Shown piece after piece: positions 6,682-63,947 of a DNA stretch of 64,000 nucleotides (the stretch's first letter is position 1; every line of letters starts with the position of its first letter). This DNA comes from an uncultured Pseudomonadales bacterium. Lineage in GTDB: Bacteria; Patescibacteriota; Microgenomatia; UBA1400; PJMF01. The stretch lies in contig CAZVBO010000003.1 of assembly GCA_964625685.1 (NCBI GenBank), positions 64,298-128,297 on the forward strand, in the 5' to 3' direction. Under the pieces are notes generated by a model that was not told where the DNA came from, searched no databases, and worked only from the letters and a program-made list of their open reading frames with translations. Both the position numbers and the translations under genes were made by a program.

Positions 6682-7622
6682 TCAACCTCCTCTGGGAAAA
6701 CGGTTCCAAATAATTCCCTCCAACCTGCAATTCTTGTAGTCTCTGGCAGGTTGGGGTTCAAGAGAGATATCATATTTTCTGAAATAATTGGCAAAGCTCT
6801 GGTCAAATATGATAAGGCTGGCTCTCGGATATAACGATCTGGAAAGTGAGAGCCTTGGAAATTAATCGGTTTATTCAGGTATTTCTGCATTTCGTTCACC
6901 ATATCAATTAGAAGCAGCGGAGTATTGATTGGAAAGTTATTTGCAATTCTGCGAGCTATAAGTCCTGGAAGTAACTCCGTTGCAAGTATTTCTAAATGGA
7001 CAGAGTCTAACCCCTCAATATCTAGAACATGACGCTTTAGGGCTTTGAGAACTTTGATAAAGGGTATTAATCTTCCACCTGTGGCTTTATTCATTTCTGT
7101 CAAGTAAACAACCTCAAAGTCGTAGTCAGCTATTTCCCAGCCATGTCCTTTCGCAACCCAATAACATCGGCCTTGTTGATAGGATTGAGCCCCATCTAAT
7201 GAAAGGCCTATGTTGTCACGGTATGCGGGAACGAGTTCTACCTTGATTTTTCCATCACCGTAAGGGAAGGTTACCGTTGGAGCATCTTGAACAGGATTCA
7301 TTGCAGAATATCTGTTGCTTCTTTGCAGTAATTCATCAAGAGTTCTAAGTGCTTGGTTGGAACTCAAGCCAGAAGGACTTCTAGTAGAGAAGGTGCCAAG
7401 TATCACTAGGATATCAATATCGAAAACATCATCTGGTCTTGGATGCACTCTGGTTTGTCTTTGCAATGAACCAATAAGCTTTGTTTCTATGGCTCTTGTC
7501 GAGTTATTTTCAAGATAAGTTCTTACTGCATTATGTCGCTGCTCAACCAAGCCCTGGTGAGTATCCTTCAGCTCGAGGTTTGATTGCAGCTTGGTAAAAT
7601 GTTTTCCTAAAAAAATTGACAT
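6678..7622 (-). CDS. Nucleotidyltransferase-fold protein, SMODS / CD-NTase-like candidate second-messenger synthase
   Basis: GS...[DE]h[DE]h pattern: IGSLQRQTRVHPRPDDVFDIDILV. 314 aa. Translationally coupled to the downstream 2-TM gene. Confidence 0.5.
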   Translation of the reverse strand: MSIFLGKHFTKLQSNLELKDTHQGLVEQRHNAVRTYLENNSTRAIETKLIGSLQRQTRVHPRPDDVFDIDILVILGTFSTRSPSGLSSNQALRTLDELLQRSNRYSAMNPVQDAPTVTFPYGDGKIKVELVPAYRDNIGLSLDGAQSYQQGRCYWVAKGHGWEIADYDFEVVYLTEMNKATGGRLIPFIKVLKALKRHVLDIEGLDSVHLEILATELLPGLIARRIANNFPINTPLLLIDMVNEMQKYLNKPINFQGSHFPDRYIREPALSYLTRALPIISENMISLLNPNLPETTRIAGWRELFGTVFPEEVE

Positions 7623-15040: not shown

Positions 15041-15112
15041 GCACTCAACAATCAGCGATAGAACTTTTTTAATGGCCGTCTTGGACAACCGAAGTTCTTT
15101 CGCGTTGAGTGC
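15041..15112 (+). repeat. Imperfect inverted repeat (GCACTCAAC...GATAGAAC / GTTCTTTCG...GTTGAGTGC) around a ~29-bp core, immediately upstream of the serine recombinase gene; candidate recombination (att) site
   Basis: Arms 15041-15064 and 15094-15112 seen directly in the sequence. The position mirrors attP-next-to-int layouts of large serine recombinase elements. Confidence 0.35.
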
Positions 15113-15138
15113 ACCAGGGCGGCCATTTAAGTATAAGG

Positions 15139-16773
15139 ATGAATATGTATCAAAGCACAGACACCTCACAGTTTGACCACGTTAAGAACTGTCTCATTTA
15201 CGCTCGTGTTAGCACTAGCCGCCAAGTTGAGGAAGGTCACTCACTTGAAGATCAAATTGAACGCCTAACTAAATTTGCTAAAGACCGTGAATGGCGAATC
15301 CTCGAAGCGTTCAAAGACGGCGGAAAAAGTGGTGGTTCAACATCAGGACGAGCTGAATTCAATCGTATGCTGGAACGTTGTGCTGATGATCCTGACGTTC
15401 ATGCAGTTTTACTCGAAGAAACTGATCGCTTTGCTCGTAATGCTCAAGACCACTTGGCCGTCAAATCATTTCTCAAAAAACATAACGTGGTCCTGATTGC
15501 TACCCAGCAGCCTAACTTTGGTGATGACCCTGTGGGCAACTTTGTTGACCTCATTATGGCTGGAGCCAATCAGCTGCAAAGAGAAATAACTGGTGTTAAG
15601 ACTAAACGTACTATGGTTGGTTTGGCAGAAAAAGGATTACAACCAGGTGGGGCTGTTCTTGGCTATCTCAACTCATATGAGAAAGGTGTGCCCTGGAAAA
15701 TAGATAAAGAGCGAGTGTACTATGTAAAAGAAGCCTTCCGCCGATATAACACTGGTAACTACTCTATCCATACCCTTGGCGATGAAATTTATGCAGAAGG
15801 CTTTCGTACTCGAAATGGCAAACGTGTTCATTCAAGCAACATTCAAAAAATCCTAACCGATGTTCGTTATCTTGGTTGGGTCAAGTACGATGGCAAAATC
15901 TATAAAAATGGCCAGCACCCTCAACTTATCAATATCACGGAATTTAAAAAAGCGGAGGCAATTATGAAAAAACACAACAAAGGAGCAAATAGGTCACGAA
16001 AGCACAACTGGTTTTTGGCAGGGTTAGTCTACTGCCAACACTGTGGCTCATTGATGTCTGGTGAGAAGCATGAAAAAAGCACTGGCAAAATCTACAAGTA
16101 CTATCGCTGTATGGGACCTAAAAATCATGGTCATACTTGCAACGAACCCTATGCCAACATCGAGAAGGTCCATGACCAACTGTACAAATGGATCACTGGC
16201 TTGGAATTCACCGACACCTTTTTTGATGGCCTTCGCCAAGAGCTAATGTCTCTCATGGAAAACCAAGGCGATACTGTAAAAGACAGACTCGACACTCTCC
16301 AAAAGCGTAAAGAATCAATAGAAAAGAAAATGGATAAGCTGGAAGATCAAATGCTTTCAGAGGTTATTCCACAGGATAGAATCGAGAAAAAGTACAAACC
16401 CTTGCGAGATGAGCTAACAGCCGTTGAAGCCAAAATCGAGAAACTCAATATGCCTTCAAATAATATGGATGAGGAAAAGATCGAAACAATTATCAAGTTC
16501 ATGAAACGCTTGCCAGAACTTTATGATGCCTTCAACAAAAAAGAACGTAAACAATTTCTTAAGTGGTTCACCACAAAGATCATGATAAAGGATAAGAAAA
16601 TTGTTGATATTGCCTATACACCAGGCTTTCAAGCCATGGTTGATAGAGACATCGTTCGGATAAGCGAAACGTGGCTCGAGAAATGGTATGAATTCGGAAA
16701 AATTGATTGGGTCAGCGAGCTGGAATATCCGGAGTGGACGGTAAAGGAAGTGGGGAGGTTCTTACAATATTGA
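15139..16773 (+). CDS. Large serine recombinase (resolvase/invertase N-terminal catalytic domain, recombinase domain, zinc ribbon, coiled coil)
   Basis: CLIYARVSTSRQ (catalytic Ser region), ...DGGKSG..., and zinc ribbon CQHCGSLMSG...YYRC. About 545 aa. Start moved to MNMYQ behind an AAGGA RBS. Confidence 0.85.
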   Translation: MNMYQSTDTSQFDHVKNCLIYARVSTSRQVEEGHSLEDQIERLTKFAKDREWRILEAFKDGGKSGGSTSGRAEFNRMLERCADDPDVHAVLLEETDRFARNAQDHLAVKSFLKKHNVVLIATQQPNFGDDPVGNFVDLIMAGANQLQREITGVKTKRTMVGLAEKGLQPGGAVLGYLNSYEKGVPWKIDKERVYYVKEAFRRYNTGNYSIHTLGDEIYAEGFRTRNGKRVHSSNIQKILTDVRYLGWVKYDGKIYKNGQHPQLINITEFKKAEAIMKKHNKGANRSRKHNWFLAGLVYCQHCGSLMSGEKHEKSTGKIYKYYRCMGPKNHGHTCNEPYANIEKVHDQLYKWITGLEFTDTFFDGLRQELMSLMENQGDTVKDRLDTLQKRKESIEKKMDKLEDQMLSEVIPQDRIEKKYKPLRDELTAVEAKIEKLNMPSNNMDEEKIETIIKFMKRLPELYDAFNKKERKQFLKWFTTKIMIKDKKIVDIAYTPGFQAMVDRDIVRISETWLEKWYEFGKIDWVSELEYPEWTVKEVGRFLQY

Positions 16774-17905: not shown

Positions 17906-19318
17906 TTAATTCAATAACTCAATTATTTCCTCTTTTGTTAAATAATTATCATGATTTATTTCTAGTGAATCACCCTGAATTACTCTAGCAACATCTTGTT
18001 TTTTCGCTAATCTGTCTTCAACAAATAGATCGATTGAGTCAGAACAAAGAAGCTTAATAATCCGGCAACGTTTCTCCTGTGAGATTCTATGTATTCTGTC
18101 CTGAGATTGTAGATAATCGACCAAGTTAAAAGATCGATCAAGGTAAATGGCATTATTAGCGGCGGTGAGGGTCAACCCTTCCCTTGCTGCAGAAGGGTTG
18201 GCAACCATAACCTTATATTCAGGATCCTCCTGAAAAGATTTAATATATTTATTTCTCCGAGCAATCTCAACTCCACCATAAATATTAAGAGATCCATACT
18301 TACGGTATCTAGACTTTAGTCCTTTGACATTGTCAACAAATGAGGACCATATAATTACCTTTTCTCCGCTGTGAACAATTTCCTTAACCAATTTATCTAG
18401 AGCAGTAAATTTTGCAGGAGTTTCCTTATAGTCCTTCACAACCAAACCTGGGTTACTAGATATTTGAACTAAGCGTAGAAGCTTTTTTAATATTGATTTG
18501 GCTTCATCAACAATTTTTTCTTCAGGAGTATTGATTATTTCAATGAGTAGTTCTTTTTTGAGTTTCTCATATATTTCGGATTGTTTGGGTGCCATGTCAA
18601 CCACAATCTGCTCATACACTTTCTCTGGAAGCTCAAGAACATTTTCCTTTAAACGTCTTATCGATATCGGGGATATTTTTTTCTGTAATTCTAAATAAAG
18701 ATCCGTTGAACCTTTATCCAAGTTCCCATACCGTTTTTTAAATACCTTAAAATCTTTCCCAAGACTTTCTCCTTTATCGAGAAAATAAAACTGTGCCCAA
18801 ATATCCGTTGGTTTGTTTGCTACAGGCGTACCGCTCAGAATATATCTCCTGGTGGCCAATTTAGATAAACCATTAATTGCTTCAAAGGTTTGGCTCTCTG
18901 GATTCTTAATCCTCTGTGACTCATCAAGAACAACCACAAATTTTTGAGACTCTAGAAGTAACTCAACAATCTCCAATTCCGCTTTAACACCCTCATAATT
19001 AAGAATAAAAATATTCGCAGAAGTAAGAAATCTGTATCCCTTTGATCTGCCACTGCCAGTAATTACAGCTGGAACTAAAAAACTGTGTTTCTTAATTTCA
19101 GACTGCCAGGTATACATTAACGTTTTTGGACAAACGATTAATGCGGCGTCTGTTTTTTTAGTCTTTAACAAAGAAATTATTGTATCTATGACTTCCTTGG
19201 TCTTACCGACCCCTTGTTCATCAAAAAGAGCTGCGTTTGGTTTGGAAACAAGAAAATTTATAGCTTCAAGCTGATGAGGGAAAGGTTGTGTTTTCTTCCT
19301 AAGGTAGTTTTTAGTCAT
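17906..19318 (-). CDS. SNF2-family (SF2) helicase/ATPase
   Basis: Motif I DEQGVGKT, motif II VVLDESQRIKN, motif III LSGTPVANKP and motif VI QSQDRIHRISQ. Start taken at MTKNYLRK, 2 nt after the upstream stop. Confidence 0.8.
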   Translation of the reverse strand: MTKNYLRKKTQPFPHQLEAINFLVSKPNAALFDEQGVGKTKEVIDTIISLLKTKKTDAALIVCPKTLMYTWQSEIKKHSFLVPAVITGSGRSKGYRFLTSANIFILNYEGVKAELEIVELLLESQKFVVVLDESQRIKNPESQTFEAINGLSKLATRRYILSGTPVANKPTDIWAQFYFLDKGESLGKDFKVFKKRYGNLDKGSTDLYLELQKKISPISIRRLKENVLELPEKVYEQIVVDMAPKQSEIYEKLKKELLIEIINTPEEKIVDEAKSILKKLLRLVQISSNPGLVVKDYKETPAKFTALDKLVKEIVHSGEKVIIWSSFVDNVKGLKSRYRKYGSLNIYGGVEIARRNKYIKSFQEDPEYKVMVANPSAAREGLTLTAANNAIYLDRSFNLVDYLQSQDRIHRISQEKRCRIIKLLCSDSIDLFVEDRLAKKQDVARVIQGDSLEINHDNYLTKEEIIELLN

Positions 19319-19319
19319 A

Positions 19320-19712
19320 TTATTCTGGTAGCAACCTATCGGGGATTGGCAGCAATAGTATGTTTCCATCCTGGGAGACCCCACCTACTAAACCCTGAAT
19401 CCGATTTTCTGCTGAGATTGGAAAACCCAAATATATTTTTAAATCAGTAATTACATCTTTTTGCGCAGATATAAAATCCTCCAGCTGTTCATGGGTTCTT
19501 GTACCAAAATCATCAGCGGTTTTTGCTTCTCCGATTGCCAAGCTACCTGACTTCATACCAATGAGATCCGGGCGGTGCCTCTTTATTTTTGGTGGTAATG
19601 ATATCTTTTGCTCATTTTCTGAATAACCCTCAAAGGAGATAACCTCATAGCCGTCAAGGATCATTTTCCTAGCTACTAGCTCGGCTATAAACTGATGCGC
19701 TTTTGAAGCCAT
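19320..19712 (-). CDS. Small protein (130 aa) with a PD-(D/E)xK-like motif; candidate nuclease
   Basis: RPDLIGMKSGSLAIGEAKT fits the PD...E-x-K pattern. Tightly coupled on both sides: 1-nt gap upstream, 2-nt gap downstream. Confidence 0.35.
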   Translation of the reverse strand: MASKAHQFIAELVARKMILDGYEVISFEGYSENEQKISLPPKIKRHRPDLIGMKSGSLAIGEAKTADDFGTRTHEQLEDFISAQKDVITDLKIYLGFPISAENRIQGLVGGVSQDGNILLLPIPDRLLPE

Positions 19713-20739: not shown

Positions 20740-21591
20740 TCATTTCGAATTGTTATTGAAAATCATAATTTCTTCAACAACTCTTCTTTTGCTTGTAAAA
20801 CCAGCAATGCTTCTTCTGACGGAGACCGTTTTAAAATTGAATCCTTCCTTTAGTAAATCAGCTTCTTCGGACTCAGCATAACTTACAACAAACTGGATTC
20901 CCTTTTTATCGAGTCTGTCCATCCATTTCTTGAGGCACATTATATCATTCATTCCGAATATTGACTTGTCGTATTTGTTAAATATTTTTTTTGATCTCAC
21001 ACTAAAAGGAGGATCCATATAAACAAAGTCACCTTTACGAACTTTTTTCAAGGTTTCTTCAAAACCATTTGAGTGCAATTCAGCATTTTTTAACAATTTT
21101 GCCGCAGTGAAGAAAACCTCGTCTGTGGGCATAACACCCTTATCATCACCACAATACGGAACATTAAATTCTCCTTTACTGTTTGTTCTATACAACCCAT
21201 TGAAACAAAATCTGTTTAAGTAGATAAACCTTGCAGCTCTTTTATTCGGAGACAGTTTGTCGGGCTTTAACGCTCGAATTTTATAGTAATCCTCTTTGCT
21301 TTTATTCAGCTTCTTTATCGCTTTTAGGACAGAGCCAGTATCATTTGAAATCTGTCTATAGGTAGTAATTAATTCTTCATTAATGTCACTCAACAACGCT
21401 TTTTTAGGAGCCAGGCTAAAAAATAAACAGGCTGAGCCAACAAATGGTTCAACGTACCTATTAAAGTCATCACTCCAAAATTCAGATAAAACAGGAATGA
21501 GTTGTCGTTTACTTCCAGCCCATCTTAAAAAGGGCTGAGCAACACTAGTGGTTTTATTATTTTTTTTCATATTTAAACACCAACTAGACAC
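20740..21591 (-). CDS. DNA N6-adenine methyltransferase, Dam/T4Dam family
   Basis: N-terminal FLRWAGSKR, motif I EPFVGSACLFF and motif IV DPPF. Start at either 21591 or 21570. Confidence 0.8.
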   Translation of the reverse strand: MSSWCLNMKKNNKTTSVAQPFLRWAGSKRQLIPVLSEFWSDDFNRYVEPFVGSACLFFSLAPKKALLSDINEELITTYRQISNDTGSVLKAIKKLNKSKEDYYKIRALKPDKLSPNKRAARFIYLNRFCFNGLYRTNSKGEFNVPYCGDDKGVMPTDEVFFTAAKLLKNAELHSNGFEETLKKVRKGDFVYMDPPFSVRSKKIFNKYDKSIFGMNDIMCLKKWMDRLDKKGIQFVVSYAESEEADLLKEGFNFKTVSVRRSIAGFTSKRRVVEEIMIFNNNSK

Positions 21592-49586: not shown

Positions 49587-50012
49587 ATGAAAGACAAATC
49601 AGTAGCAAAACCAACAGAAAAACTTATAAGGAAGATTGGTCAATTCTTGGTCAAAAATTGGTCGACTTTTCAGGGTGGGCAGCATGTGGGCAAAATGAGG
49701 GCAGATTTAGAGGAGTTTAAGGCTAAACAGGGTGTACAAAAGGTGGACAGAAATAGGACAGAAAACCTGCACCAACTCTTCGTCAAAACTGCGCCAACTA
49801 AGGTTCACCGGTGCTTCACTGAAACTTCACCGGATTTTGGAAGCTTTAGCCTAAAAACCCTTCGGTATGGTGACGGTGAAATGTCGGTGGTTTTTGACCC
49901 TTCATTTGTCCTGTTTCCGCGTATAGCCCAGTATATGCGGAAAGTCCTGATTCAATTTGATATTCCCTCGAGTTACCTATATGTTGTTGTGTTGAAAAGA
50001 GTCTGCCTATGA
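49587..50012 (+). CDS. Hypothetical protein (141 aa)
   Basis: ORF whose stop overlaps the recombinase start. Confidence 0.3.
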   Translation: MKDKSVAKPTEKLIRKIGQFLVKNWSTFQGGQHVGKMRADLEEFKAKQGVQKVDRNRTENLHQLFVKTAPTKVHRCFTETSPDFGSFSLKTLRYGDGEMSVVFDPSFVLFPRIAQYMRKVLIQFDIPSSYLYVVVLKRVCL

Positions 50013-51595
50013 AAAGCGTTATATTCTGCCGAGTCTCCAGCAAAGAACAAGAAGAAACGGGCTACTCCCTCCCGGCGCAGGAGAAGTTCCTGCGAGAATA
50101 TGGCGACAAGCAAGGCTTGGAGGTTAAAAAGGTCTTTGCCATCTCTGAGTCTGCAGCAGGCAAAAGCCAACGCAAGGTCTTTGAGGAAATGATCGCCTAT
50201 GTCAGAAAACAAAATATTTGTGCCATCATTGTCGAAACCACGGACCGTTTAACCCGTAACTTCTCTGATGTGCCCACCATCGACCTCTGGATCACCGAGA
50301 GTGAAGAACACCAAATCCACTTGGCCAAAGAAGCCTGCATCTTGCACAACTCTTCCCGCTCACACGAATGGTTTATGTGGCGAGTCAAAGTTGCTACCGC
50401 TGAATATTATGTCCGCCTGCTTTCCGAGAACGTTAAGAAGGGACAAAAAGAAAAACTGGCTCAGGGCTGGCTGCCAACCAGACCACCACTAGGATATAAA
50501 ACCGTTGGCGAAACCGGTCACAAGATCCACATTGTTGATGAAGGTGCTTCTAAACTAGTGATCAAGATGTTTGAACTTTATGCCTCCGGCGATTATTCCA
50601 TCAAGAAACTGGCCAACACCATGTATCAAGAAGGCATGAGATCTCCTCAGGGCAACAGGCTGGCCATCAGCCGAACTCACTCCCTACTGCGCGATCCTTT
50701 CTATATGGGTAAGATTAGATGGAATGATGAAATTTACGAAGGCAAACAAGAGCCATTAATCAGTAAAGAATTATTTGATAAGGTTCAGAAGTTACTTAAA
50801 AGCAAAACCACTCCCACTTATATGAAACACAGCTACTTATTCAAAGGCTTAATTCGCTGCACTACCTGCAAAGGGCTGATTACCTGGGAACTACACCGAG
50901 GTCATCGCTACGGACACTGCAACCACTACAACAAATGCCCTCAGAAAACATGGGTTAAGGAGCCTGGGACCGAAGAACAACTCTTGAGAGGATTTGAGAA
51001 TCTAAGAATTAAGAACAAACGAGTCACCGAATGGCTCAAAAAAGCACTCAAGGAAAGCCATCAGGACGAAGTCCAGTATCACAACAGCACTGTGGGCGAA
51101 CTAGAAACCCGCTATGAGGCGGTTAGTAGACGAATGGACAAGTTATACGATGACAAACTTGATGAAAAAATCACTCAGGAGTTTTATAACCGTAAGTTTA
51201 AGCAGTACTCCAAAGAAAAAGACGAACTCACCGAAACCATTAAACGCCACTCCACCGCCAGCACAGGTTATCTTAACCTAGGCATTAATCTATACGAACT
51301 CTCGCAACGAGCCAAAGAAATCTACCTCACTGCCAAAAAGAAGGACATGCTGGACGAACAACGCGCCCTTATCAGACTGGTATTCAAAAAGCTCATCTTA
51401 GACGAAGGCAAACTCAGCTGGGAGTACTCCCGAGCCTTTAAGATCCTGTCTGAGGCAGTAAGTCAGACAAATTGTTCTAAAGTGGAAAATTTGGAGGGTT
51501 TGGAAAAAGAAACTTTCGAACATCACGAAAAGAGCGATGTTACGGGACAAAAAGACTCTTTGTCGCCCTCTCATCCCATCTGGCTCCCCGAGTAG
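50009..51595 (+). CDS. Large serine recombinase (second copy)
   Basis: VIFCRVSSKEQ, resolvase domain, recombinase domain, zinc ribbon CTTCKG...HCNHYNKC, coiled coil. The last 15 nt overlap the tRNA-Asn 3' end. Confidence 0.85.
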   Translation: MKSVIFCRVSSKEQEETGYSLPAQEKFLREYGDKQGLEVKKVFAISESAAGKSQRKVFEEMIAYVRKQNICAIIVETTDRLTRNFSDVPTIDLWITESEEHQIHLAKEACILHNSSRSHEWFMWRVKVATAEYYVRLLSENVKKGQKEKLAQGWLPTRPPLGYKTVGETGHKIHIVDEGASKLVIKMFELYASGDYSIKKLANTMYQEGMRSPQGNRLAISRTHSLLRDPFYMGKIRWNDEIYEGKQEPLISKELFDKVQKLLKSKTTPTYMKHSYLFKGLIRCTTCKGLITWELHRGHRYGHCNHYNKCPQKTWVKEPGTEEQLLRGFENLRIKNKRVTEWLKKALKESHQDEVQYHNSTVGELETRYEAVSRRMDKLYDDKLDEKITQEFYNRKFKQYSKEKDELTETIKRHSTASTGYLNLGINLYELSQRAKEIYLTAKKKDMLDEQRALIRLVFKKLILDEGKLSWEYSRAFKILSEAVSQTNCSKVENLEGLEKETFEHHEKSDVTGQKDSLSPSHPIWLPE

Positions 51596-51655
51596 GATTC
51601 GAACCTACAACCTTGAAGTTAACAGCTTCCTGCTCTGCCATTGAGCTATCGGGGA
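51581..51655 (-). tRNA. tRNA-Asn (anticodon GTT), encoded CCA
   Basis: Manual cloverleaf. Acceptor UCCCCGA/UCGGGGA, D stem GCUC/GAGC, anticodon loop CU-GUU-AA, T arm GGUUCGAAUCC. Starts with U like E. coli tRNA-Asn. Confidence 0.75.
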
Positions 51656-53302: not shown

Positions 53303-53418
53303 GATACTCGTCTAGTGACTATTTTATCGTCATCCTGAACTTGATTCAGGATCTAGGGCGTTTTCAACAAATCCTGGATCCTGATTTTCATCAGGATGAC
53401 ATTATAAAAAAAGTCAAT

Positions 53419-54738: not shown

Positions 54739-54768
54739 TTGTCATCCCGCGTCAGACGCGGGATCCAT
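54739..54768. repeat. GC-rich palindromic element TTGTCATCCCGCG-loop-CGCGGGATCCAT (REP-like); copies also at 58337-58365 and, inverted, at 56131-56156
   Basis: Three intergenic copies seen directly in the sequence. Confidence 0.5.
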
Positions 54769-54873
54769 CTGCTACTATACACCCATAAATAAGTAAATTT
54801 CAAAAATACATTCCAAAGCTGTTTCATCGACGAGATTCTAAACTTGTTCAAAGTTGAAATATATTTTTCCTAA

Positions 54874-56067: not shown

Positions 56068-56334
56068 AAAAAGCACACCTCGTCATTTCCTCGAAAGAGG
56101 GAATCTGGGACATTGGTTGAGCTCTTCCAGATCCCCGCATTCGCGAGGATGACAGACTATTTTTTAAAAAAAATTTTGGTTTCTGACTTCCCCGCCTGCA
56201 GCAGCTTTGCTGCAAGCAATGCGGGCAGGTGGCTTTAAACCTTTACCCCTCTATCCCTTTTAAACCTGAATACTTTCTTTCCGCCCAAGGCGGACCAGCC
56301 TCGGGCTGGCTTTCAACTTTCTGGCTTCTGGCTT

Positions 56335-57408
56335 TCAACTTTTTTGATTCATTTCCAGCCACTTTTCGGCATCCAGTGACGCCGCTGTGCCTTGACCAGC
56401 GGATGTAATGGCTTGCTTGTAGCGTAAATCAACCACATCGCCAGCTGCAAACACACCTGGCACTGAAGTCATACTGGGATAGACAATCAGTCCCTCTTCA
56501 TTCAAAGCTTGTTGGGCCATCGTCACCCCAGCTTGACTGGCACTTTGAGGCGTAACTACATAACCATGAGCATCTAACTCTACCTGACCTTGAAATAACT
56601 GAGTCAAAGGTTTGTGGCCAATCGCATAAAATAAACCATCAGTCGGCACGACTCGAGGTTCTTGACCCATAGTTTCTAACTTAATTTGCGTTAATTTGGT
56701 ATCTCCCAAGGCTTCGACCACTTGAGTATTCCACAAGACCTCCACTTTAGGATGATTGAGTACTCGCTCCTGCATGATTTTACTGGCTTTAAAACTATCG
56801 CGGCGATGGACCACTTTAACTTCTTTAGCAAACTTAGTCAGAGCCAACGTATCTTCCATGGCACTATCTCCACCACCCACCACATAAGCTACTTTATCTT
56901 TATAAAAAGCGGCATCACAGACAGCACAAGTAGCAATCCCTTTCCCAAAAAACTGATCTTCTCCAGGGATTCCTAACATGATAGCGGCGGCGCCAGTGGA
57001 GATGATCACACTTTCTGCTTCAAAGCCAGGTGGTTGCTCCATCACCTGCTGGCGAAAATCCTTCATTTGGTCAGGCGTTAAGTACTCAAACTGAGTCGGA
57101 TCAAATTTATCAGGTAAGTTGGTCCAAACTTTGAACGGCCGCTGTGAAAAATCGACCGCACTCACCCACGCATCCACGATCTGCGTTTCAAACCGAGCGG
57201 CTTGTTCGCGCATCTCAATCATTAAATCAGGTCCATTTTTGCCTTCCTTAAATCCAGGAAAGTTTTCAACTACGCCGGTATTCATTAATTGACCACCAGA
57301 TTTTAAGCCCCCAATTAAGATAGGGGCCAGCTTGGCCCGGCCGGCATATATGCCAGCCGTAAAGCCAGCTGGCCCCGAACCAATAATTAACAACTTTGTT
57401 TTTTGCAT
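56335..57408 (-). CDS. trxB: Thioredoxin-disulfide reductase
   Basis: N-terminal GSGPAG FAD motif. Redox-active CAVCD. 357 aa, slightly long for the family. Confidence 0.85.
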   Translation of the reverse strand: MQKTKLLIIGSGPAGFTAGIYAGRAKLAPILIGGLKSGGQLMNTGVVENFPGFKEGKNGPDLMIEMREQAARFETQIVDAWVSAVDFSQRPFKVWTNLPDKFDPTQFEYLTPDQMKDFRQQVMEQPPGFEAESVIISTGAAAIMLGIPGEDQFFGKGIATCAVCDAAFYKDKVAYVVGGGDSAMEDTLALTKFAKEVKVVHRRDSFKASKIMQERVLNHPKVEVLWNTQVVEALGDTKLTQIKLETMGQEPRVVPTDGLFYAIGHKPLTQLFQGQVELDAHGYVVTPQSASQAGVTMAQQALNEEGLIVYPSMTSVPGVFAAGDVVDLRYKQAITSAGQGTAASLDAEKWLEMNQKS

Positions 57409-57767
57409 ACTTTATTCCTTTGGCTTTTAATATATTCTTGAACCGCTTGTTCAACACCTTCTAAATTTCTTTTAACTTCGTTATCAGCAAATCGCAAAAA
57501 ATGCAATCCTACTTGCTCTAATCTAATTTGTCTTACCTCATCATAATCTCCTTTATAATCATGACTGTCTCCATCGATTTCTATAACTAACTGAAGTTTT
57601 TGACAATAGAAATCTACAATGTAATTCAATAAAGGTTTTTGGCGATTAAAAGTATATCCTCCAATTTTGGTCTTTAAGACCTGCCAAAGTAAAATTTCAG
57701 AAAGAGTACTTTGGTTTCGTAATTTTCTTGCTTTTGTTTTTAATGTTGGATTGTAATAAATTCGCAT
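57387..57767 (-). CDS. DUF559 (Vsr/restriction-endonuclease-like fold) domain protein
   Basis: ...YTFNRQ...IVDFYC...LVIEIDG.SH...D..R...L...G...LRF. Start at MRIYYNPT behind an AGAGG RBS. Overlaps the trxB start by 22 nt. Confidence 0.5.
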   Translation of the reverse strand: MRIYYNPTLKTKARKLRNQSTLSEILLWQVLKTKIGGYTFNRQKPLLNYIVDFYCQKLQLVIEIDGDSHDYKGDYDEVRQIRLEQVGLHFLRFADNEVKRNLEGVEQAVQEYIKSQRNKVCKKQSC

Positions 57768-57775
57768 AGGATAAA

Positions 57776-57829
57776 TGCCTCTGTCTGGATTTCTCCAGAC
57801 GTCTCCTCTTAGAAAGAGGAGATTTTGAG
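57776..57829. repeat. Structured element X, copy A: two consecutive hairpins (TCTGGA-TTTC-TCCAGA and TCTCCTCTT-AGAA-AAGAGGAGA)
   Basis: The second copy at 60873-60925 has compensatory changes in hairpin 1 (TCTCGCTATCGCTAGA). Confidence 0.5.
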
Positions 57830-57865
57830 TTAATTTATCTCTCATGTATTACAACAAAGTGACCT

Positions 57866-57932
57866 AGTCCCCTTTTCCTAAAAGGGGCATCAAGTCAGGC
57901 ACTTCAAAGTGCATGACCTGATGGGGCATTTA
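57866..57932. repeat. Structured element Y, copy A (CCCCTTTTCCTAAAAGGGG hairpin, then CATCAAGT...ACCTGATGGGGCATTT)
   Basis: The second copy at 60813-60866 has conserved flanks and a variable middle. Confidence 0.5.
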
Positions 57933-58286
57933 CTCTAATGCTTTATCAAGCATCTCTCTGTATCCATCCTCCCCAGGAAAACCAATTTTCCGGTCAACTT
58001 CTTCCATTTGATCACCTTTTTTCTTCATTACCACCACCGTCGGAATACTCATTACTCCAAACTGACCAGCCACATCTCGATTTTCATCCACATCAAGTTT
58101 GGCAATCACAGCTTTGCCTGCATACTCACCAGCCAACTTGTCTACAATGGGAGCTGCCATTTTACAAGGACCACACCATTGGGCAAAAAAATCAATGAAC
58201 ACTGGTTGATCTCCAGCATCTTTTAAGGTTTGTTTGAAGGTGTCTTCGCTTAAGTGAAGAGCGCCTTTCTGAGTATTATCGGCCAT
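57930..58286 (-). CDS. trxA: Thioredoxin
   Basis: WCGPCK active site. 118 aa. AAGGAGG RBS. Confidence 0.85.
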   Translation of the reverse strand: MADNTQKGALHLSEDTFKQTLKDAGDQPVFIDFFAQWCGPCKMAAPIVDKLAGEYAGKAVIAKLDVDENRDVAGQFGVMSIPTVVVMKKKGDQMEEVDRKIGFPGEDGYREMLDKALE

Positions 58287-58288
58287 AG

Positions 58289-58328
58289 AGCCTCCTTATT
58301 AATATTTAATGATTAATGTCTAATGTCT
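58289..58328. repeat. Heptad (TAATGnn / CAnTAAy)n tract immediately upstream of trxA
   Basis: TTAATGATTAATGTCTAATGTCTAATGTCTAAC, 7-bp periodicity. Related tracts at 58428-58458, 60575-60624, 60780-60808, 60988-61019 and 63680-63715. Confidence 0.6.
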
Positions 58329-58458
58329 AATGTCTAACACTGGATTGTCATTCCCGCGAAGGCGGGAATCCATACTTATTTAACTTGCCCTAGATTCTGA
58401 GTTAAACTCAGGATGACAGTTAAACTGTAAACATTAACCAATAATCATTAGTCACTAA

Positions 58459-58746
58459 TTAGTATCTAAATACTTCCTTTAGAATCTCATCCAAATCACC
58501 CAGCCGGCGTTCTTTGGAACAATGACTGGCTTCACTGGTCAGTAAGTCCCGAGCCACTCGGCCCAGCGAACTGCGAGCCGCAATCACTTGCCGCACAATA
58601 TCCACACAGGCTCTTTCATCTTCATACATCTTAATCACGCCGTCAAGCTGACCTCGGATTCTCTTGAGTTGAGTCAGCGTTTGATCAGAACTTGCAGCCG
58701 GCGAGTTTTTAGCAGCCGTTAATTTCAGTTTCATCATGGCTCTCAT
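58459..58746 (-). CDS. CsoR/RcnR-family (DUF156) metal-sensing repressor
   Basis: ...LKRIRGQLDGVIKMYEDERACVDIVRQVIAARSSLGRVARDLL..SHC. Confidence 0.55.
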   Translation of the reverse strand: MRAMMKLKLTAAKNSPAASSDQTLTQLKRIRGQLDGVIKMYEDERACVDIVRQVIAARSSLGRVARDLLTSEASHCSKERRLGDLDEILKEVFRY

Positions 58747-58789
58747 GATACCCCTAGGGGGTATGTAGTGTCAATGGGAAAAGGGGCGA

Positions 58790-60571
58790 TTAGTTTTTGC
58801 GTTTTAATAACACAATTTGTTTTAATAGCTCAGATTGGCGAGCTTCTTCTTGAGGAGTTTTTTCAGCCTTAGCATCCAGCTGATCCAGTTCATGAGTGAT
58901 CTGAGCCACTGCTTCTGCCACTGAGAGCGCCTTCAAATCTTTGAGGGTGTTATCCCACTCTTTCTCGAGGTCTAATTCATCGACAATTTCAATATAGTCA
59001 GGCTGAAGATAAACTTCAGACACCAACTGTTGTTGATCTTCTGGCAGTTGCTTCATAAACTGGGTCAAATCAAAGCTACTAGACTGCTTTTCTAAAGTTT
59101 GAACCAGTGGTTTGACACCTATTTTTTTCCATCGCAAATTTTTTAGTTCAGATACTCGATGAGTCTCAAACGGCATTCGAAAGAATAAGAAGAGAATATA
59201 ACTTTCCAGTCTTTCCCGGCGAGTTTGAGGCTGGTCTTTTTCCACTGGTTCAACTGAAGTAGCAGCTTTTTTAGAACTAGCAAAAAGCGTCGTTTTATCT
59301 TTAAAGGTGTCAATATCTTTCCGCACCACTTCATCTTTGACTCCCAAAACTTGAGCCAACTTTTTAATGTAAAAATCTTGTTCCACCGCATGAGGAATAC
59401 TGCCAAAGATAGGTGCTAACTCATCAATGATTTGCCGTTTTCCTTCTGGAGTTTGGGTGCCATATTGATTGACTGCATTTTGCAAAAAGAATTCGTAGAC
59501 CGAGACAGAAGTTTTGGTGGCTTCTCGCCACGCTTTCGGATCAGTTTTGGCTAGCTCATCCGGATCTTTACCTGAGGGTAACTTCAAAACTCGTAGCTCA
59601 ATTTCAAACTCGCGAGCTAAAGTAATGGCTCTCTTGGTTGCTTCTCGGCCAGCACTATCCATGTCGAGACTTAACAATACTTTTTTGACCGTTCGCCGCA
59701 GTAACTGCAATTGTTCTCGAGTCAAAGCCGAACCTTTAATCGCTACAATCTGATTCACATGCGCCTGAGTCGAGGAAATAACATCTAGTTCTCCCTCAGC
59801 CACAATTACTTCCTGAGCTTGACGAATGTGCTGGTAGAGCTGAGAGTAGCCAAACAACAATTCTGACTTGTGATACAGCATCGTTTCCGGACTATTAATA
59901 TACTTAGCTTCTTTAACATCTTTTTTCAAAGTCCGACCAGAAAAGCCAACAATTTGCCCTCGAGCATTAGTCAGTGGAAACATGACTCGATCTCGAAATC
60001 GATCGTAATACCGACCATTTCGGCCTTTAATAATCAAACCAGCCGCTTCTAAATCAGCTAAACTATACTTTTTCTTTTGATGCAAGTATTTAATTAAGCC
60101 ATCCCAACCAGGCAAAGCATACCCCATCTGGAAAATTTTGATCGATTCTTTGACAATTCCCCGTTGATGGAGATACTCCCGGGCTGGTTCACCTGCCGGG
60201 TGAGTGGTTAGTAGATAGTGATAGTATTCTTTGGTTAAATCTAAAATATCCAGCAGTCGTTCTCTTTGTTCGTCCTGAGGAGTAGCTTGATAGTCTTTGA
60301 GCTCAATCCCGGCCCGATCAGCTAAATACTTCAAACTTTCGTAAAAGCTCATCCCTTCATACTTTTCTAAAAAGTTAAATACATCACCTGATTCTCCACA
60401 GCCAAAACAGCGATAGCGTTGGAGCTGTTCATTCACAAAAAAAGAGGGTGACTTTTCACTATGAAAAGGACACAATCCTTTGTAATTGACTCCAGATCGT
60501 TTGAGTTCAACTCGCTCCCCAATGATCTGGACGATATCGCTGGCATCTTTGACTTGTTTGGCTTGGGACAT
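58790..60571 (-). CDS. dnaG: DNA primase
   Basis: Zinc-binding CPFHSEKSPSF...CFGCGESGD and TOPRIM EGELDVIS...DMDSAG. 593 aa. Confidence 0.9.
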   Translation of the reverse strand: MSQAKQVKDASDIVQIIGERVELKRSGVNYKGLCPFHSEKSPSFFVNEQLQRYRCFGCGESGDVFNFLEKYEGMSFYESLKYLADRAGIELKDYQATPQDEQRERLLDILDLTKEYYHYLLTTHPAGEPAREYLHQRGIVKESIKIFQMGYALPGWDGLIKYLHQKKKYSLADLEAAGLIIKGRNGRYYDRFRDRVMFPLTNARGQIVGFSGRTLKKDVKEAKYINSPETMLYHKSELLFGYSQLYQHIRQAQEVIVAEGELDVISSTQAHVNQIVAIKGSALTREQLQLLRRTVKKVLLSLDMDSAGREATKRAITLAREFEIELRVLKLPSGKDPDELAKTDPKAWREATKTSVSVYEFFLQNAVNQYGTQTPEGKRQIIDELAPIFGSIPHAVEQDFYIKKLAQVLGVKDEVVRKDIDTFKDKTTLFASSKKAATSVEPVEKDQPQTRRERLESYILFLFFRMPFETHRVSELKNLRWKKIGVKPLVQTLEKQSSSFDLTQFMKQLPEDQQQLVSEVYLQPDYIEIVDELDLEKEWDNTLKDLKALSVAEAVAQITHELDQLDAKAEKTPQEEARQSELLKQIVLLKRKN

Positions 60572-60574
60572 GGT

Positions 60575-60624
60575 TTAATGATTAATGTTTATTGGTTATT
60601 GATTATTGATTATTGTTTAATTTC
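60575..60624. repeat. Heptad (CAATAAT-like)n tract abutting the dnaG start codon
   Basis: Gene-sense ATTAAACAATAATCAATAATCAATAACCAATAAACATTAATCATTAAACC-ATG. No Shine-Dalgarno sequence. Confidence 0.6.
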
Positions 60625-61033
60625 ACAATCTCAAGATGTTAGTTTTTTTCCCTTAACTTGGAATTTGCCTGCCTGCGCAGACAGGTTTGGATTTTGGAAT
60701 TTGGAATTTATAGCCTCATTATCAAGTATACCTTATTTCTTGCAACTAACAATCAAAACCCGAATGGAAAAGCAAGTGATTAGTGTCTAATGTTTAATGG
60801 TTAATGACAAATCCCCTTTTTCTAAAAGGGGCATCAAGTGAGTGAAACGAACCTGATGGGGCATTTCAGTAATGGCTTAAACACCTCTGTCTCGCTATCG
60901 CTAGACTTCTCCTCTTTGATAAGAGGAGATTTTCTATTTATTCTTCGCATACCATTCACAACTGACACGAAATACTGGCACTAATCACTAACCAATAAAC
61001 AATAACCATTCGCTTCCCTGTTATAATGAAGGT

Positions 61034-61387
61034 ATGTCTAAAAAGAAACGCAATCAACAAAACCCTGCCTTCGCTACCCCTTTCGGCAAATACTTTAAAC
61101 TGCTGGATGAAGTCGACAAGGGTCAACGTTACTCTAAAGAATTTGGCTCCATCCTGATTTTGGGACTGGTTGAAGAAATTGGCGAGATGGCTCGAGCCTA
61201 CTTAGCTAAGCATGGTCGTAAAAAAACCAATCTAGCAGCTCAAGCTGATGAAACTTATGAGCAAGAACTCGGTGATATCTTACTGACCATTATTCGGTTT
61301 GCCCGCGTTAAGAAAATTAATCTCGATGAACGCATCATGTATTCACTCCAAAAAATCGAAAAACGGAAAACCGAACCGAAACGATAG
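61034..61387 (+). CDS. MazG-like nucleoside triphosphate pyrophosphohydrolase family protein
   Basis: EExGE...A....E.GD.LL pattern: LVEEIGEMARAYL...ELGDILLTII. Confidence 0.5.
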   Translation: MSKKKRNQQNPAFATPFGKYFKLLDEVDKGQRYSKEFGSILILGLVEEIGEMARAYLAKHGRKKTNLAAQADETYEQELGDILLTIIRFARVKKINLDERIMYSLQKIEKRKTEPKR

Positions 61388-61514
61388 AGAATTTTTTGCA
61401 GCTAATGACTACCTAATTAGTTCAAAGTATATCAATCCCTCGAGGTTTGTCAATAACTTTGGGAAGAATTGCTGGTTTAGATTTTTCAAAAAAGGAATCC
61501 TTTGAATAATCAGA

Positions 61515-63245
61515 TTATAATCCGATACTTTGGATTGAATTTGCAATTGCTTGTGCTAACGCTATGTGTCCATCCGGGTTCGGATGTATACCATCAACAG
61601 TATGGGAAGCTCCATCATCATCTGCTTTGAGTATAACTCTTTCGTCAGCCACTACATGAGCCCAATTACGACCTGAAATAACTTGTGGAATATAGGTGTC
61701 TCCTATGCTATCCCAAAGAGAATCGCTTCCCCTTCTCCATGGTTTTACTATTCCTATTTTTGCGTTTGGCTCGAAAACGTGAGCGGTATCTAGCAAATAC
61801 TGATAGTCTGTAACCCACTGAGCTTCATTTCCAGACAAATTTGCTGAATCATTAACACCTAGACTAAAAATAATCCAATTGGTCCCATGATATCGACTTG
61901 CAAAATCGTCATTAATAACCGAAGTGAACTTTAAACTACCTGTCGTGCCGTAGTTAACTCCGTAAGAATTTCTTCCATCGCGCAATGGGAATTCATTCCA
62001 AACTAAACCAGTAGAAGATGTTAGTAAATCGCGAGTACGAGCAGCAAAACCATTTTCATATTGAGGATATGTATTTGTATCATCCCCACTTCCAACTGTT
62101 TTGCTATCACCAATAAACAAAATACCTTTATCAACAGTAGAGGTACCAGTGTATAGATCAACAAAAAGAGGAAAACACTGCAGTTCAGATCCTGCATGGC
62201 TTACCTTTACTCCAGTCGCCATAAAATTACTACGAGCATTATTATATTCAACCTTAAAAGTGGTGTTTACATAGACTCTGATTGCATAACGATCCAATTC
62301 AGCCCAAACTCTATATGTTGTGCCACTTGTCCAAGTATGGGAGGTGCTGGCACGTTCTGTTTCAGTACCACTAGATTTCTCGATGATTTTGATAGTACTA
62401 TTTGCCTGATCCATTCTAATTATCCAGCAATTATTATCATCGGTTTGTCTGACTATTAGTTCCTGAGTAATGCCTGTTTGCGCAGTAATTGTGTGATAGA
62501 TTTGCGCATCAGCTTTACTTGTTGCTGTGTCGTTGTCGACGGTTGTTGGTTTTCGACTCGTAACAATACCAAAGCGATCACGAAAGTTAGAAGGTAGTCT
62601 AGTTGTAACACCAATCTGCTGAAATTTTAATGGACGATTAACGTCGTTAAAACGCCATCTGATATTAGCTGCTGTTTGAGTTTCATTTACATGGGATAGT
62701 GTCCACTTACTTTCACCAATGAAACGTTTAAAGTAGAATGCACCAGGAAAACGACTTACTATCAGCTGTTCACAAATTGTTGGTTTGCTAGTGTATACAC
62801 CATTAATCTGCCCCCATGCCTTCCTGTCGTCAACGTTTTGGGCGCGAAAATTATTATAGTACTGAGTGAAGTACATCAAATCAGTGCTTGAGGCGTTAAT
62901 ATCGCTATCAAAACCTAAAAAACCATTTGAACGACGTGCATCCCAAATTTTAACTCTTGCATACGCAGCTATACCTATCTGGTTAGAAAATTCTGCGCTA
63001 TGAATTTCAGGATCGTTATATGATAGATAAATAGTATCTTCCCGTTCTAGCTCATTATTGTTGATGTTATAGAGAGCAGTCGAATCATTTATATTCAAAC
63101 TACCCAATTCAACATATGGTGATCCTAAAACTCCATTGATGCTATTATCATCTGGTCCCTGAAATGAAGCCGAAAGTAAATTAAAAATTAACCTTTTTTG
63201 ACCTGTTTTAGTCGCGAAATTAACTCTTTGTCTTGCTAGTTTCAT
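61515..63245 (-). CDS. Large secreted/surface protein with a C-terminal SGNH/GDSL hydrolase domain
   Basis: GDSKTVGSGDD (block I), GVNDSANL (block III), DGIHPNPDGH (block V). The N-terminal ~360 aa are beta-rich and unassigned. Confidence 0.5.
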   Translation of the reverse strand: MKLARQRVNFATKTGQKRLIFNLLSASFQGPDDNSINGVLGSPYVELGSLNINDSTALYNINNNELEREDTIYLSYNDPEIHSAEFSNQIGIAAYARVKIWDARRSNGFLGFDSDINASSTDLMYFTQYYNNFRAQNVDDRKAWGQINGVYTSKPTICEQLIVSRFPGAFYFKRFIGESKWTLSHVNETQTAANIRWRFNDVNRPLKFQQIGVTTRLPSNFRDRFGIVTSRKPTTVDNDTATSKADAQIYHTITAQTGITQELIVRQTDDNNCWIIRMDQANSTIKIIEKSSGTETERASTSHTWTSGTTYRVWAELDRYAIRVYVNTTFKVEYNNARSNFMATGVKVSHAGSELQCFPLFVDLYTGTSTVDKGILFIGDSKTVGSGDDTNTYPQYENGFAARTRDLLTSSTGLVWNEFPLRDGRNSYGVNYGTTGSLKFTSVINDDFASRYHGTNWIIFSLGVNDSANLSGNEAQWVTDYQYLLDTAHVFEPNAKIGIVKPWRRGSDSLWDSIGDTYIPQVISGRNWAHVVADERVILKADDDGASHTVDGIHPNPDGHIALAQAIANSIQSIGL

Positions 63246-63249
63246 AATG

Positions 63250-63687
63250 TTAGCTCATATTCTGGCCAGACAAAAAGCCAAACCAATTAGTACCGTCAGG
63301 AGAGAAAAAACCAATAACATCAATCGCCCCTATTGCGGTTGAGAGAGTAGGATCATTGCCATTATCCCATTTCACTTCTGAAGGCCAGGTGATAGTATAA
63401 CTACCAGAACCACCTTGTTTCACAACTACAGTCAGTGATTGTCCAGCCACAGCAGTGGGGAAAGTAAGAGTACAATTTTGAGTTAGAGTTAAATAATGAA
63501 TTCCAGCACTGGTTGGTGCTGGCAGAGTATAAGAAGCACCTGCATCTGATTGAGTATTCACGACATCAGTAACAAGTCCAGTGGAAAGACCATGGGTTCC
63601 ATCTGAGTTATGCTCAACTTCCAGAAACTCATTTAAAACTGTTCCCCAGTTGCCATCATCTCCATTTACGGTTGGTAGTCTTGCCAT
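63250..63687 (-). CDS. Hypothetical protein (145 aa), possible surface or structural partner of the SGNH protein
   Basis: ORF 5 nt upstream of the SGNH gene. Gly/Thr-rich. Confidence 0.35.
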   Translation of the reverse strand: MARLPTVNGDDGNWGTVLNEFLEVEHNSDGTHGLSTGLVTDVVNTQSDAGASYTLPAPTSAGIHYLTLTQNCTLTFPTAVAGQSLTVVVKQGGSGSYTITWPSEVKWDNGNDPTLSTAIGAIDVIGFFSPDGTNWFGFLSGQNMS

Positions 63688-63743
63688 ACTTTAATGATTA
63701 TTGGCTAATGGTTAATGGTTAATCCTACCAATGCTGATAGGAT

Positions 63744-63947
63744 TTAAGCACCATAGGGACCAGAGCCAAAACCTCCTCTTACTAACTTTGACTGTTTTTT
63801 ATTGTTGTTTACTAAATTCGGGTCTGAGATGGTACTCATTAAACTTGAAATTCCCGTGATAGCAAGCATCAGTAACCCTAAGTGAAGTAAGAATTCTCTC
63901 CTGGTCATTTGCTTGGTCAATAATTCATCAAAGGAAAATATTTTCAT
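63744..63947 (-). CDS. Small protein with a twin-arginine (RREFLLHLG) signal-like N-terminus
   Basis: MTRREFLLHLGLLMLAITGISS. Confidence 0.3.
   Translation of the reverse strand: MKIFSFDELLTKQMTRREFLLHLGLLMLAITGISSLMSTISDPNLVNNNKKQSKLVRGGFGSGPYGA

Follow-up and report, generated by a model that had tools for sequence, protein, structure and literature searches.

We describe a family of tandem seven-nucleotide repeats, CAnTAAy, in a 64-kb stretch of contig CAZVBO010000003.1 (positions 64,298 to 128,297; hereafter, the window) from a bacterium that, judging by its DnaG homologues, belongs to the Patescibacteria/Paceibacteria. The repeats form six tracts of 5–7 tandem heptads (T1 to T6; Table 1), which all cluster within 5.4 kb and lie in spacers next to trxA, csoR, dnaG, a MazG-like gene (mazG), and a gene for a 145-aa protein whose ATG begins at 63687 on the minus strand (the 63687 gene).

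Seven-nucleotide periodicity in the window

A preliminary description of this DNA had reported at least six heptad tracts and none in the other 58 kb. An independent scan of the whole window for runs of heptads fitting C-A-n-T-A-R-n, with at least 4 of the 5 fixed positions matched, finds six tracts at coordinates within a few bases of those reported and no run of at least 4 units outside 58298-63724, that is, in the remaining 58 kb; the other matches in the 64 kb are four chance runs of three units. Four tandem copies of the motif CAHTARN give 8 overlapping matches in the window vs. a mean of 0.00 in 100 dinucleotide-preserving shuffles, and three tandem copies give 14 matches vs. 0 in the shuffles. 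A motif-free periodicity test, which scores identity at lag k over 21 nucleotides (nt) and marks a region at 16 or more matches, marks six regions at lag 7, all within 58.3–63.7 kb, and zero regions in the window at lags 3, 5, 6, 9, 13, and 15; 7 is the sole enriched period in the window among those tested. One of the six lag-7 regions belongs to another heptad family (TTTGGAA/AAATTCC) and constitutes a seventh heptad tract, overlooked in the preliminary description. Tandem Repeats Finder recovers the same arrays.

The tracts occupy few of the available sites: of the 28 intergenic gaps that measure 60 nt or more (together 6.3 kb), 3–4 contain all the tracts, and these gaps hold ~13% of intergenic bases. 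T6 is identical at every base in six Logan assemblies from six sequencing runs and therefore is not an assembly artefact; no length polymorphism was seen across the six assemblies. A search of the window against Rfam (gathering threshold and E ≤ 1) returned only tRNA-Asn and a sub-threshold FtrB match, taken as chance, and neither the tracts nor the hairpin cores described below matched a known RNA family. We conclude that the CAnTAAy tracts are real, non-random, and evolutionarily young.

Positions of the tracts relative to gene signals

T3 is followed by CC and then by the dnaG ATG (60569-60571), and T6 is followed by GT and then by the ATG of the 63687 gene (63685-63687). In both cases a Shine-Dalgarno (SD) sequence is absent, and the preliminary description, which had the tract run up to the ATG of these two genes, is borne out, with a gap of 2 nt. 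It had also placed tracts directly in front of the start codons of trxA and mazG, where an SD and an extended −10 element, respectively, intervene. T1 lies directly 5' of the trxA SD, AAGGAGG (58291-58297; ATG, 58284-58286), and contains 2 G in 35 nt, no start codon, and stops in all 3 frames. T5 ends 5 nt 5' of the extended −10 element of mazG (TG, 61019-61020; TATAAT, 61022-61027; ATG, 61034), and the mazG start, TGTTATAAT-N6-ATG, has this extended −10 at leaderless distance; because the extended −10 stands between T5 and the ATG, T5 is probably outside the mazG mRNA. T4 sits upstream of the dnaG promoter, ~200 nt from the dnaG ATG. T2 runs antisense to the csoR-trxA operon and shares its final base with the csoR stop codon (58459-58461). 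The single polarity that had been ascribed to the tracts thus holds only in part.

The tract ends coincide with four kinds of boundary: ATG, SD, extended −10, and stop codon. At dnaG and at the 63687 gene the 3' end is identical, TAATCATTAAA-N2-ATG (N3 in L001, a related locus considered below), and dnaG, the 63687 gene, trxA, and L001 all have the same 3'-terminal units, CATTAAT CATTAAA.

Four of the tracts are arms of larger composites. T1/T2 and T4/T5 are inverted pairs flanking hairpin cores of 92 and 172 bp, that is, terminal inverted repeats around a short non-coding core, the arrangement by which a miniature inverted-repeat transposable element (MITE) is recognized. T5, in addition, is 88% complementary to T3. 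The cores of composites 1 and 2 are unrelated in sequence, and a second copy of either composite was not found in 151 loci. The module TCCCCTTTTTCTAAAAGGGGCATCAAGTGAG of the composite 2 core recurs at 57868-57898 with 94% identity. The empty site in L001 is compatible with a TAA/TTA duplication, but a target-site duplication could not be defined.

Table 1. Heptad tracts, composites, genes, and other features (window coordinates unless a locus is named)
Feature	Coordinates	Strand	Sequence, basis, or remark
T1	58298-58332	-	CATTAGA CATTAGA CATTAAT CATTAAA TATTAAT; right arm, inverted pair 1
Composite 1 core	58333-58424	-	Small hairpins, including GTCATTCCCGCGAAGGCGGGAATC and CTGAGTTTAACTCAG
T2	58425-58459	+	CTGTAAA CATTAAC CAATAAT CATTAGT CACTAAT; left arm, inverted pair 1
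T3	60574-60622	-	(AATTAAA) CAATAAT CAATAAT CAATAAC CAATAAA CATTAAT CATTAAA
Second heptad family	60682-60714	-	AAATTCC AAATTCC AAAATCC; within inferred dnaG leader; homologous tract in L001
Ancestral dnaG promoter	60725-60752	-	TTGTTA-N16-TATACT; best-conserved intergenic segment
T4	60772-60806	-	CATTAAC CATTAAA CATTAGA CACTAAT CACTTGC; left arm, inverted pair 2
Composite 2 core	60807-60978		Repeated module TCCCCTTTTTCTAAAAGGGGCATCAAGTGAG and terminator-like hairpin (60908-60929)
T5	60979-61013	+	CACTAAT CACTAAC CAATAAA CAATAAC CATTCGC; right arm, inverted pair 2
T6	63690-63724	-	GATTAAC CATTAAC CATTAGC CAATAAT CATTAAA
trxB	56335-57408	-	Pfam
DUF559	57387-57845	-	Pfam
trxA	57930-58286	-	Pfam
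csoR (CsoR/RcnR-type repressor)	58459-58746	-	Pfam
dnaG	58790-60571	-	Pfam
MazG-like (mazG)	61034-61387	+	Pfam
GDSL-hydrolase-like, 576 aa	61515-63245	-	Pfam
145-aa protein (63687 gene)	63250-63687	-	Conserved N-terminus MARLPTVNGDDGNWG...; weak PF26209 match
67-aa membrane protein	63744-63947	-	Precedes 145-aa gene
Serine recombinases (large)	15109-16773 and 50009-51595		Mobile stretch
Prim-Pol	10742-13087		Mobile stretch
SMODS	6678-7622		Mobile stretch
SNF2 helicase	17906-19384		Mobile stretch
D12 methylase	20740-21591		Mobile stretch
REP-like hairpins	53330-53400, 54745-54770, 56085-56165, 58345-58370; L001 146-170, 2975-3015		Core-genome intergenic

The dnaG locus in the window and in relatives

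More than 10 relatives have a −10 box 5–8 nt 5' of the dnaG ATG (GGTATACT-N5/6-ATG or GTAAAAT-N8-ATG), from which we infer that dnaG was ancestrally leaderless. Relatives (L002, 9985-10000; L124, 3975-4000) have an invariant AGGTATACT 5–6 nt 5' of the ATG. The window and L001 keep AGGTATACT, together with an upstream TTCGGGTTTT...TTG block, now ~150 nt 5' of the ATG, and a relic ATG (ATGAGGCTATAA) stands at the former dnaG start position. DnaG of L001 is 81% identical to DnaG of the window, and the promoter–ATG interval is homologous between the two, with AAATTCC heptads first, then a variable segment, and finally the CAnTAAy tract. This tract counts 6–7 units in the window vs. 4 in L001, a difference of 14 nt (2 units), and in both ends in CATTAATCATTAAA, followed by 2 or 3 C and then by the ATG. 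Among the loci compared, the dnaG tract is common only to the window and L001, and a metagenome scan with DnaG returned no relative closer than 68% except L001. The strong conservation of the far-upstream promoter speaks for placing the tract within a long leader rather than for a new promoter inside it. The enrichment of TANNNT at 5–9 nt before the ATGs of the window is too weak to call leaderless genes genome-wide.

Orthologous spacers and heptads in other genomes

The csoR-trxA spacer of L001 is 18 nt and consists of TAATCATTATTAGGAGG only, vs. a composite of 162 bp in the window; on this comparison the composite is specific to the window lineage. Operons orthologous to that of the 145-aa gene (81–85% identity; L148–L151) have spacers of at most 20 nt with AAGGA; the corresponding spacer in the window, after the gene for the 67-aa membrane protein (63744-63947), is 56 nt and has T6 and no SD. 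CAHTARN in three tandem copies is absent from the 24 related loci compared, among them every dnaG relative at ≤68% identity and every orthologue of the 145-aa gene. Conservation in relatives, which the preliminary description had proposed to examine, is therefore divided: the dnaG tract is present in L001, but the trxA and 63687 tracts are missing from the orthologous spacers. The suggestion in that description of a lineage-specific simple-sequence family agrees with these results, the family being absent from the 24 related loci and present in L001, with related heptads in L002 and L018.

The relative L002 (GCA_015657875.1; 68% DnaG identity) carries other heptad families, AAATGnC, GATACnA, and ATTACGA, which reach the ATGs of 4–5 of 27 genes; five genes score at least 19 of 37 at lag 7 vs. 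0–3 genes at other lags. The presence of these different heptads at ATGs suggests that periodicity and composition matter more than the specific word. What is shared in the clade, as far as sequence comparison indicates, is a 7-nt periodicity and an A-rich, G-poor composition, not one word. Inverted heptad arms enclose a GC hairpin in the same way in L018 (2540-2700), an unrelated Paceibacterota metagenome-assembled genome.

Heptad arrays also occur away from start codons. A family nnGAAAG/GAAAGCC lies 3' of trxB at a conserved position (window, 56290-56335; L001, 4141-4249). In L002, heptad-periodic AGCAAGT/GGCAGTA units stand inside the dnaG coding region (11330-11445; DnaG linker), which suggests that arrays can also occupy frame-tolerant parts of open reading frames (ORFs).

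A scan of species-representative genomes for CAHTARN in four tandem copies returned at least 120 stretches. Among the matches listed are Cyanobacteria, Bacteroidota, Planctomycetota, Chloroflexota, Acidobacteriota, rumen Clostridia, Vibrionaceae, a Parabeggiatoa, and one Paceibacterota; among the same listed matches, several Bacteroidota arrays run into an ATG (e.g., L021, L075, L078, L107, and L120) and many cyanobacterial arrays consist of CATTAGT and CAATAAC.

Predicted properties of the tracts as RNA

In the CAnTAAy orientation all six tracts have 0–2 G and stops in all three frames, and ATG, GTG, and TTG are absent from 5 of the 6 (T4 has one); T3 has 0 G in 49 nt. In predicted folds of the inferred dnaG leader, both minimum-free-energy and centroid, T3 is wholly unpaired up to the AUG, and among 68 ORFs the ensemble free energy of the region −40 to +20 is weakest for dnaG, at −0.4 kcal/mol. 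Roughly half of the ORFs in the window lack an SD. The RNA of the csoR-trxA spacer is predicted to form one long hairpin with a T2:T1 stem (−59.2 kcal/mol, z = −4.0), and the mazG-dnaG composite folds likewise (z = −3.8). The idea, also raised in the preliminary description, that the tracts are translational enhancers for leader-poor mRNAs is thus compatible with dnaG and the 63687 gene, which lack an SD and of which dnaG has a tract predicted to be unpaired, but not with mazG, T2, and T4.

Other roles were considered and not retained. A coding function of the tracts is rejected, the sense strand being stopped in all frames. A phase-variable contingency simple-sequence repeat is rejected, the tract being identical in the window and 6 assemblies and its units imperfect. 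A Rho utilization (rut) site is set aside, the tracts being A-rich (~50% A, 20% C) and not C-rich.

Comparison with known repeats and leaders

Cyanobacteria reportedly contain short tandemly repeated repetitive (STRR) heptanucleotides, as described by Mazel and colleagues in 1990. STRR sequences, which include CCCCAGT, TTGGTCA, and CAACAGT and belong to (heterocystous) cyanobacteria, form arrays that are usually perfect and often long (10–30 copies) and that are not known to be characteristically placed at start codons. The CAnTAAy tracts share with them a tandem heptanucleotide structure in non-coding DNA, several families per genome, and the want of a known function, but differ from STRR1–3 in sequence and in having a Patescibacteria host and not a cyanobacterial one.

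TAACTGA repeats, found in marine Beggiatoaceae and in some Cyanobacteria and Bacteroidetes and of unknown function, are mostly forward and end ~1 nt before the start codon, with ~90% lacking an SD; RNA structure is not predicted for them, binding of S1, Csp, or CsrA has been proposed, and they are interrupted by related heptamers and show 7-nt-step indels between strains (MacGregor 2015, PMC4679880). The tracts described here resemble these repeats (PMC4679880) in being tandem 7-nt units (in sets of ~2–6 there), mostly intergenic, with related heptamers interspersed, in having forward-frame stops and no predicted RNA structure, in differing between relatives by indels in steps of 7 nt, and in being missing where close relatives have the orthologous spacer. 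The forward position 1–2 nt before an SD-less start is found at dnaG and the 63687 gene, whereas three tracts do not fit it; the trxA tract resembles the minority of TAACTGA repeats that end just before an SD (the 'with ribosome-binding site' class). Unlike TAACTGA, the CAnTAAy unit is degenerate (CATTAAT, CATTAAA, CAATAAT, CACTAAT), with a match in no register; the host is a Patescibacteria genome of ~40% G+C; four of the six tracts are in inverted pairs around hairpin cores; and the dnaG tract lies within a 150-nt insertion between a leaderless-type promoter and the ATG. TAACTGA dimers in the window do not exceed chance.

The composites are comparable to mosaics of repetitive extragenic palindromic (REP) sequences, bacterial interspersed mosaic elements (BIMEs), BOX elements, and MITEs in comprising small hairpin modules in intergenic or intercistronic spacers, in being absent from orthologous sites, and in the long stem-loops predicted in operon transcripts. 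They differ in having arms built of heptad arrays instead of unique inverted repeats and cores that are not conserved from copy to copy; neither a target duplication nor a cognate transposase was identified for the composites. Genes that lack an SD use other routes of initiation. Unstructured leaders rich in A/U or CA, such as S1-dependent enhancers and CA-repeat enhancers, serve initiation without an SD. The tracts would be like these in providing a G-poor stretch, predicted to be single-stranded, directly 5' of an SD-less AUG, but unlike them in being periodic. Genes without an SD and other initiation routes are among the subjects treated by Nakagawa et al. 2017 (PMC5397173). We conclude that the CAnTAAy family is the same kind of object as TAACTGA and STRR, but is degenerate, is arranged in part as inverted pairs, and is in a new phylum.

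Other features of the window

Between TTGACA and TATCAT of the csoR promoter lies a palindrome, ATACCCCCTAGGGGTAT (58745-58774), conserved in L001 and L002; it is probably a CsoR operator, which would imply autoregulation of csoR(-trxA). A module of ~60 nt, consisting of two adjacent hairpins, TCCCCTTTTyCTAAAAGGGG and CATCAAGT...ACCTGATG GGGCATTT, occurs at 57868-57930 and 60812-60870, with 94% identity between copies over 31 nt, and a terminator-like hairpin, TCTCCTCTT..AAGAGGAGA TTTT, is repeated at 57801-57823 and 60908-60929; the two elements stand in different orders at the two sites. The two-hairpin module, which has no Rfam match, may represent a small RNA or a mobile module. A further family consists of REP-like hairpins whose flanks are conserved (GTCATyCC-stem-loop-stem-GGrATC), among them GTCATTCCCGCGAAGGCGGGAATC and GTCATCCTGAACTTGATTCAGGATC.

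The 145-aa protein is 60–85% identical to proteins on many short contigs, including Chloroflexota- and Bellilinea-labelled ones, and its gene is followed by different partners, here a GDSL hydrolase and elsewhere BNR or LRR proteins. This spread over contigs and the varying partner suggest a horizontally mobile, phage-tail-like cassette. The stretch from ~6000 to 51655 resembles one or more integrated mobile elements adjoining tRNA-Asn (51581-51655) and holds two P-type ATPases in addition to the genes in Table 1; an att repeat of the tRNA-Asn, sought to delimit a putative island, was not found. The absence of host-specific repeats from 6–51.6 kb may be due in part to the resemblance of this stretch to integrated mobile DNA. 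Finally, 879-2988 (~2.1 kb) contains no listed ORF of at least 80 aa, yet its minus strand looks coding, and it may be a disrupted or frameshifted gene.

Interpretation

The tracts show periodicity and clustering, are of recent origin, and differ in unit number, and as RNA they are predicted to be unstructured; we infer in addition that they are transcribed within leaders and that they permit or assist translation. The explanation that we favour, with a confidence that stops a little short of even, is that they are a degenerate heptanucleotide simple-sequence family that has recently spread, is tolerated in the G-poor orientation, and serves as a passive landing pad for SD-independent initiation. 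According to this explanation, heptad arrays and short hairpin modules would make up a mosaic of small intergenic repeats in a Patescibacteria (Paceibacteria-like) chromosome, newly inserted or expanded in a few spacers of a 5-kb neighbourhood. Copies would survive where no signal is destroyed, and mainly in the orientation harmless to the message, in which the RNA would be G-poor, unable to form stable structure, and interrupted by stops in every frame, with hardly any decoy starts. In front of dnaG and the 145-aa gene, the tract would substitute for a leaderless or SD arrangement: the abutting tract would keep the initiation region single-stranded, with decoy starts absent, and ribosomes could begin at the AUG without an SD, in a host that would already translate many SD-less and leaderless mRNAs. 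The inverted tracts (csoR-trxA and mazG-dnaG) would pair into a long REP/MITE-like hairpin.

Several results weigh against a landing-pad role. Only 2 of the 6 tracts abut an ATG, the mazG tract is outside the predicted mRNA, and one tract is antisense, so one function cannot cover all copies and much may be neutral. The initiation region of the 145-aa gene ranks 20 of 68 in predicted structure, that is, average. The fixed 3' end at dnaG and the 63687 gene, TAATCATTAAA-N2-ATG, is not required by a purely passive model. One close relative, L001, carries the whole conservation test, and the placing of the dnaG tract inside a transcribed leader has promoter conservation as its single basis. In a polarity test of 98 tracts listed from diverse bacteria, 22 were sense vs. 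13 antisense within 40 nt, which is not significant; without cyanobacteria the ratio is ~21:10.

The tracts could also be selfish or neutral DNA, that is, slippage products and/or ends of non-autonomous MITE- or REP-like elements that are merely tolerated where no promoter, SD, or ORF is broken and have no role in expression. That four of the six tracts form two inverted pairs around hairpin cores, with the same architecture in L018, speaks for this view, as do the exact halting of tracts at ATG, SD, extended −10, and stop codon, the orthologous sites without tracts, the clustering of all tracts in 5.4 kb, and the scattering of the same hairpin modules in other core intergenic regions. We nevertheless regard it as unlikely, although worth keeping in view: the composite cores are unrelated, with no definable target-site duplication and no second composite copy found; every start-proximal copy is in the G-poor orientation; and the essential dnaG has lost its leaderless arrangement and has no SD, yet has kept a tract at its ATG in a relative at 81% protein identity. 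Somewhat less likely still are mRNA arrays bound by a single-strand RNA-binding protein (S1, cold-shock, or KH-domain) that recruits ribosomes or co-regulates genes. A YCAY-like or UAA-containing word that recurs regularly every 7 nt in RNA predicted to be unstructured, the position of the repeats in place of the missing SD, and the identical terminal units CATTAAT CATTAAA at four starts are as such a mechanism would have them, and the same mechanism has been proposed for TAACTGA repeats (PMC4679880). But the unit is not fixed (it begins with CAA, CAT, or CAC, and position 7 can be any of the four bases), L002 has unrelated heptads in the same position, two tracts are outside any sense transcript, the downstream genes (trxA, dnaG, and a phage-like 145-aa protein) have no common functional theme, and a candidate binding protein was not identified. 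For the binding arrays for a regulator suggested in the preliminary description, the evidence decides neither way; the degenerate units, and the different heptads that a related genome has in the same kind of position, argue against a sequence-specific reader.

Two readings in which the tracts act as DNA appear weaker again. The 3' end of a tract might be an outward promoter with a −10-like AATCAT, re-creating a leaderless mRNA or, for trxA, a short SD-containing leader. AATCAT-N6-ATG at dnaG and the 63687 gene (N7 in L001) has the spacing of the ancestral leaderless dnaG promoters (TATACT-N5/6-ATG and TAAAAT-N8-ATG), a promoter scan reports TAGACA-16-AATCAT in the trxA tract, and a promoter would explain the fixed terminal sequence and distance. 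AATCAT, however, fits TATAAT at only 4 of 6 positions and has at dnaG no TG extension or usable −35, and for these reasons is not called there by the promoter scan; −10-like words are common in sequence of 80% A+T; and no intergenic segment is better conserved than the ancestral promoter 150 nt upstream, as would not be expected of a promoter that had been replaced. We consider this reading improbable. A very slight chance attaches to DNA-level binding arrays for a transcription regulator or nucleoid protein, or to a role of the tracts as A+T-rich, UP-element-like sequence that would tune the divergent mazG and dnaG promoters. T4 and T5 are immediately 5' of the promoters of dnaG and mazG, respectively (~−54 to −88 and −21 to −55), and three heptads equal two helical turns. 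But T3 and T6 are placed between the ATG and either a promoter or the preceding gene, the repeat units vary in sequence, the CsoR palindrome ATACCCCCTAGGGGTAT in the region is distinct, and the strand symmetry typical of dimeric DNA binders is absent.

A bolder form of the translational reading, also improbable in our judgement, is that G-free tracts in heptad register are an alternative ribosome-binding signal, read instead of the SD by a single-strand RNA-binding factor with a 7-nt footprint. The same solution would have evolved in, or spread by transfer among, Patescibacteria, Beggiatoaceae, Bacteroidota, and Cyanobacteria, and here would have let the essential, ancestrally leaderless dnaG gain a regulated leader of 150 nt.

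Implications

Tandem heptamers at start codons are known, and unexplained, in giant sulfur bacteria, cyanobacteria, and Bacteroidetes; the locus described here extends them to the Candidate Phyla Radiation. In this setting dnaG is a clean natural experiment: the gene is leaderless in most relatives, two genomes have a 150-nt leader that ends in a G-free tract without an SD, and conservation of the ancestral promoter persists farther upstream. Should the tract prove necessary for translation, it would represent an SD-independent initiation signal based on sequence periodicity; if it is not needed, the locus would show how far selfish simple-sequence DNA can reach into the control region of an essential gene.

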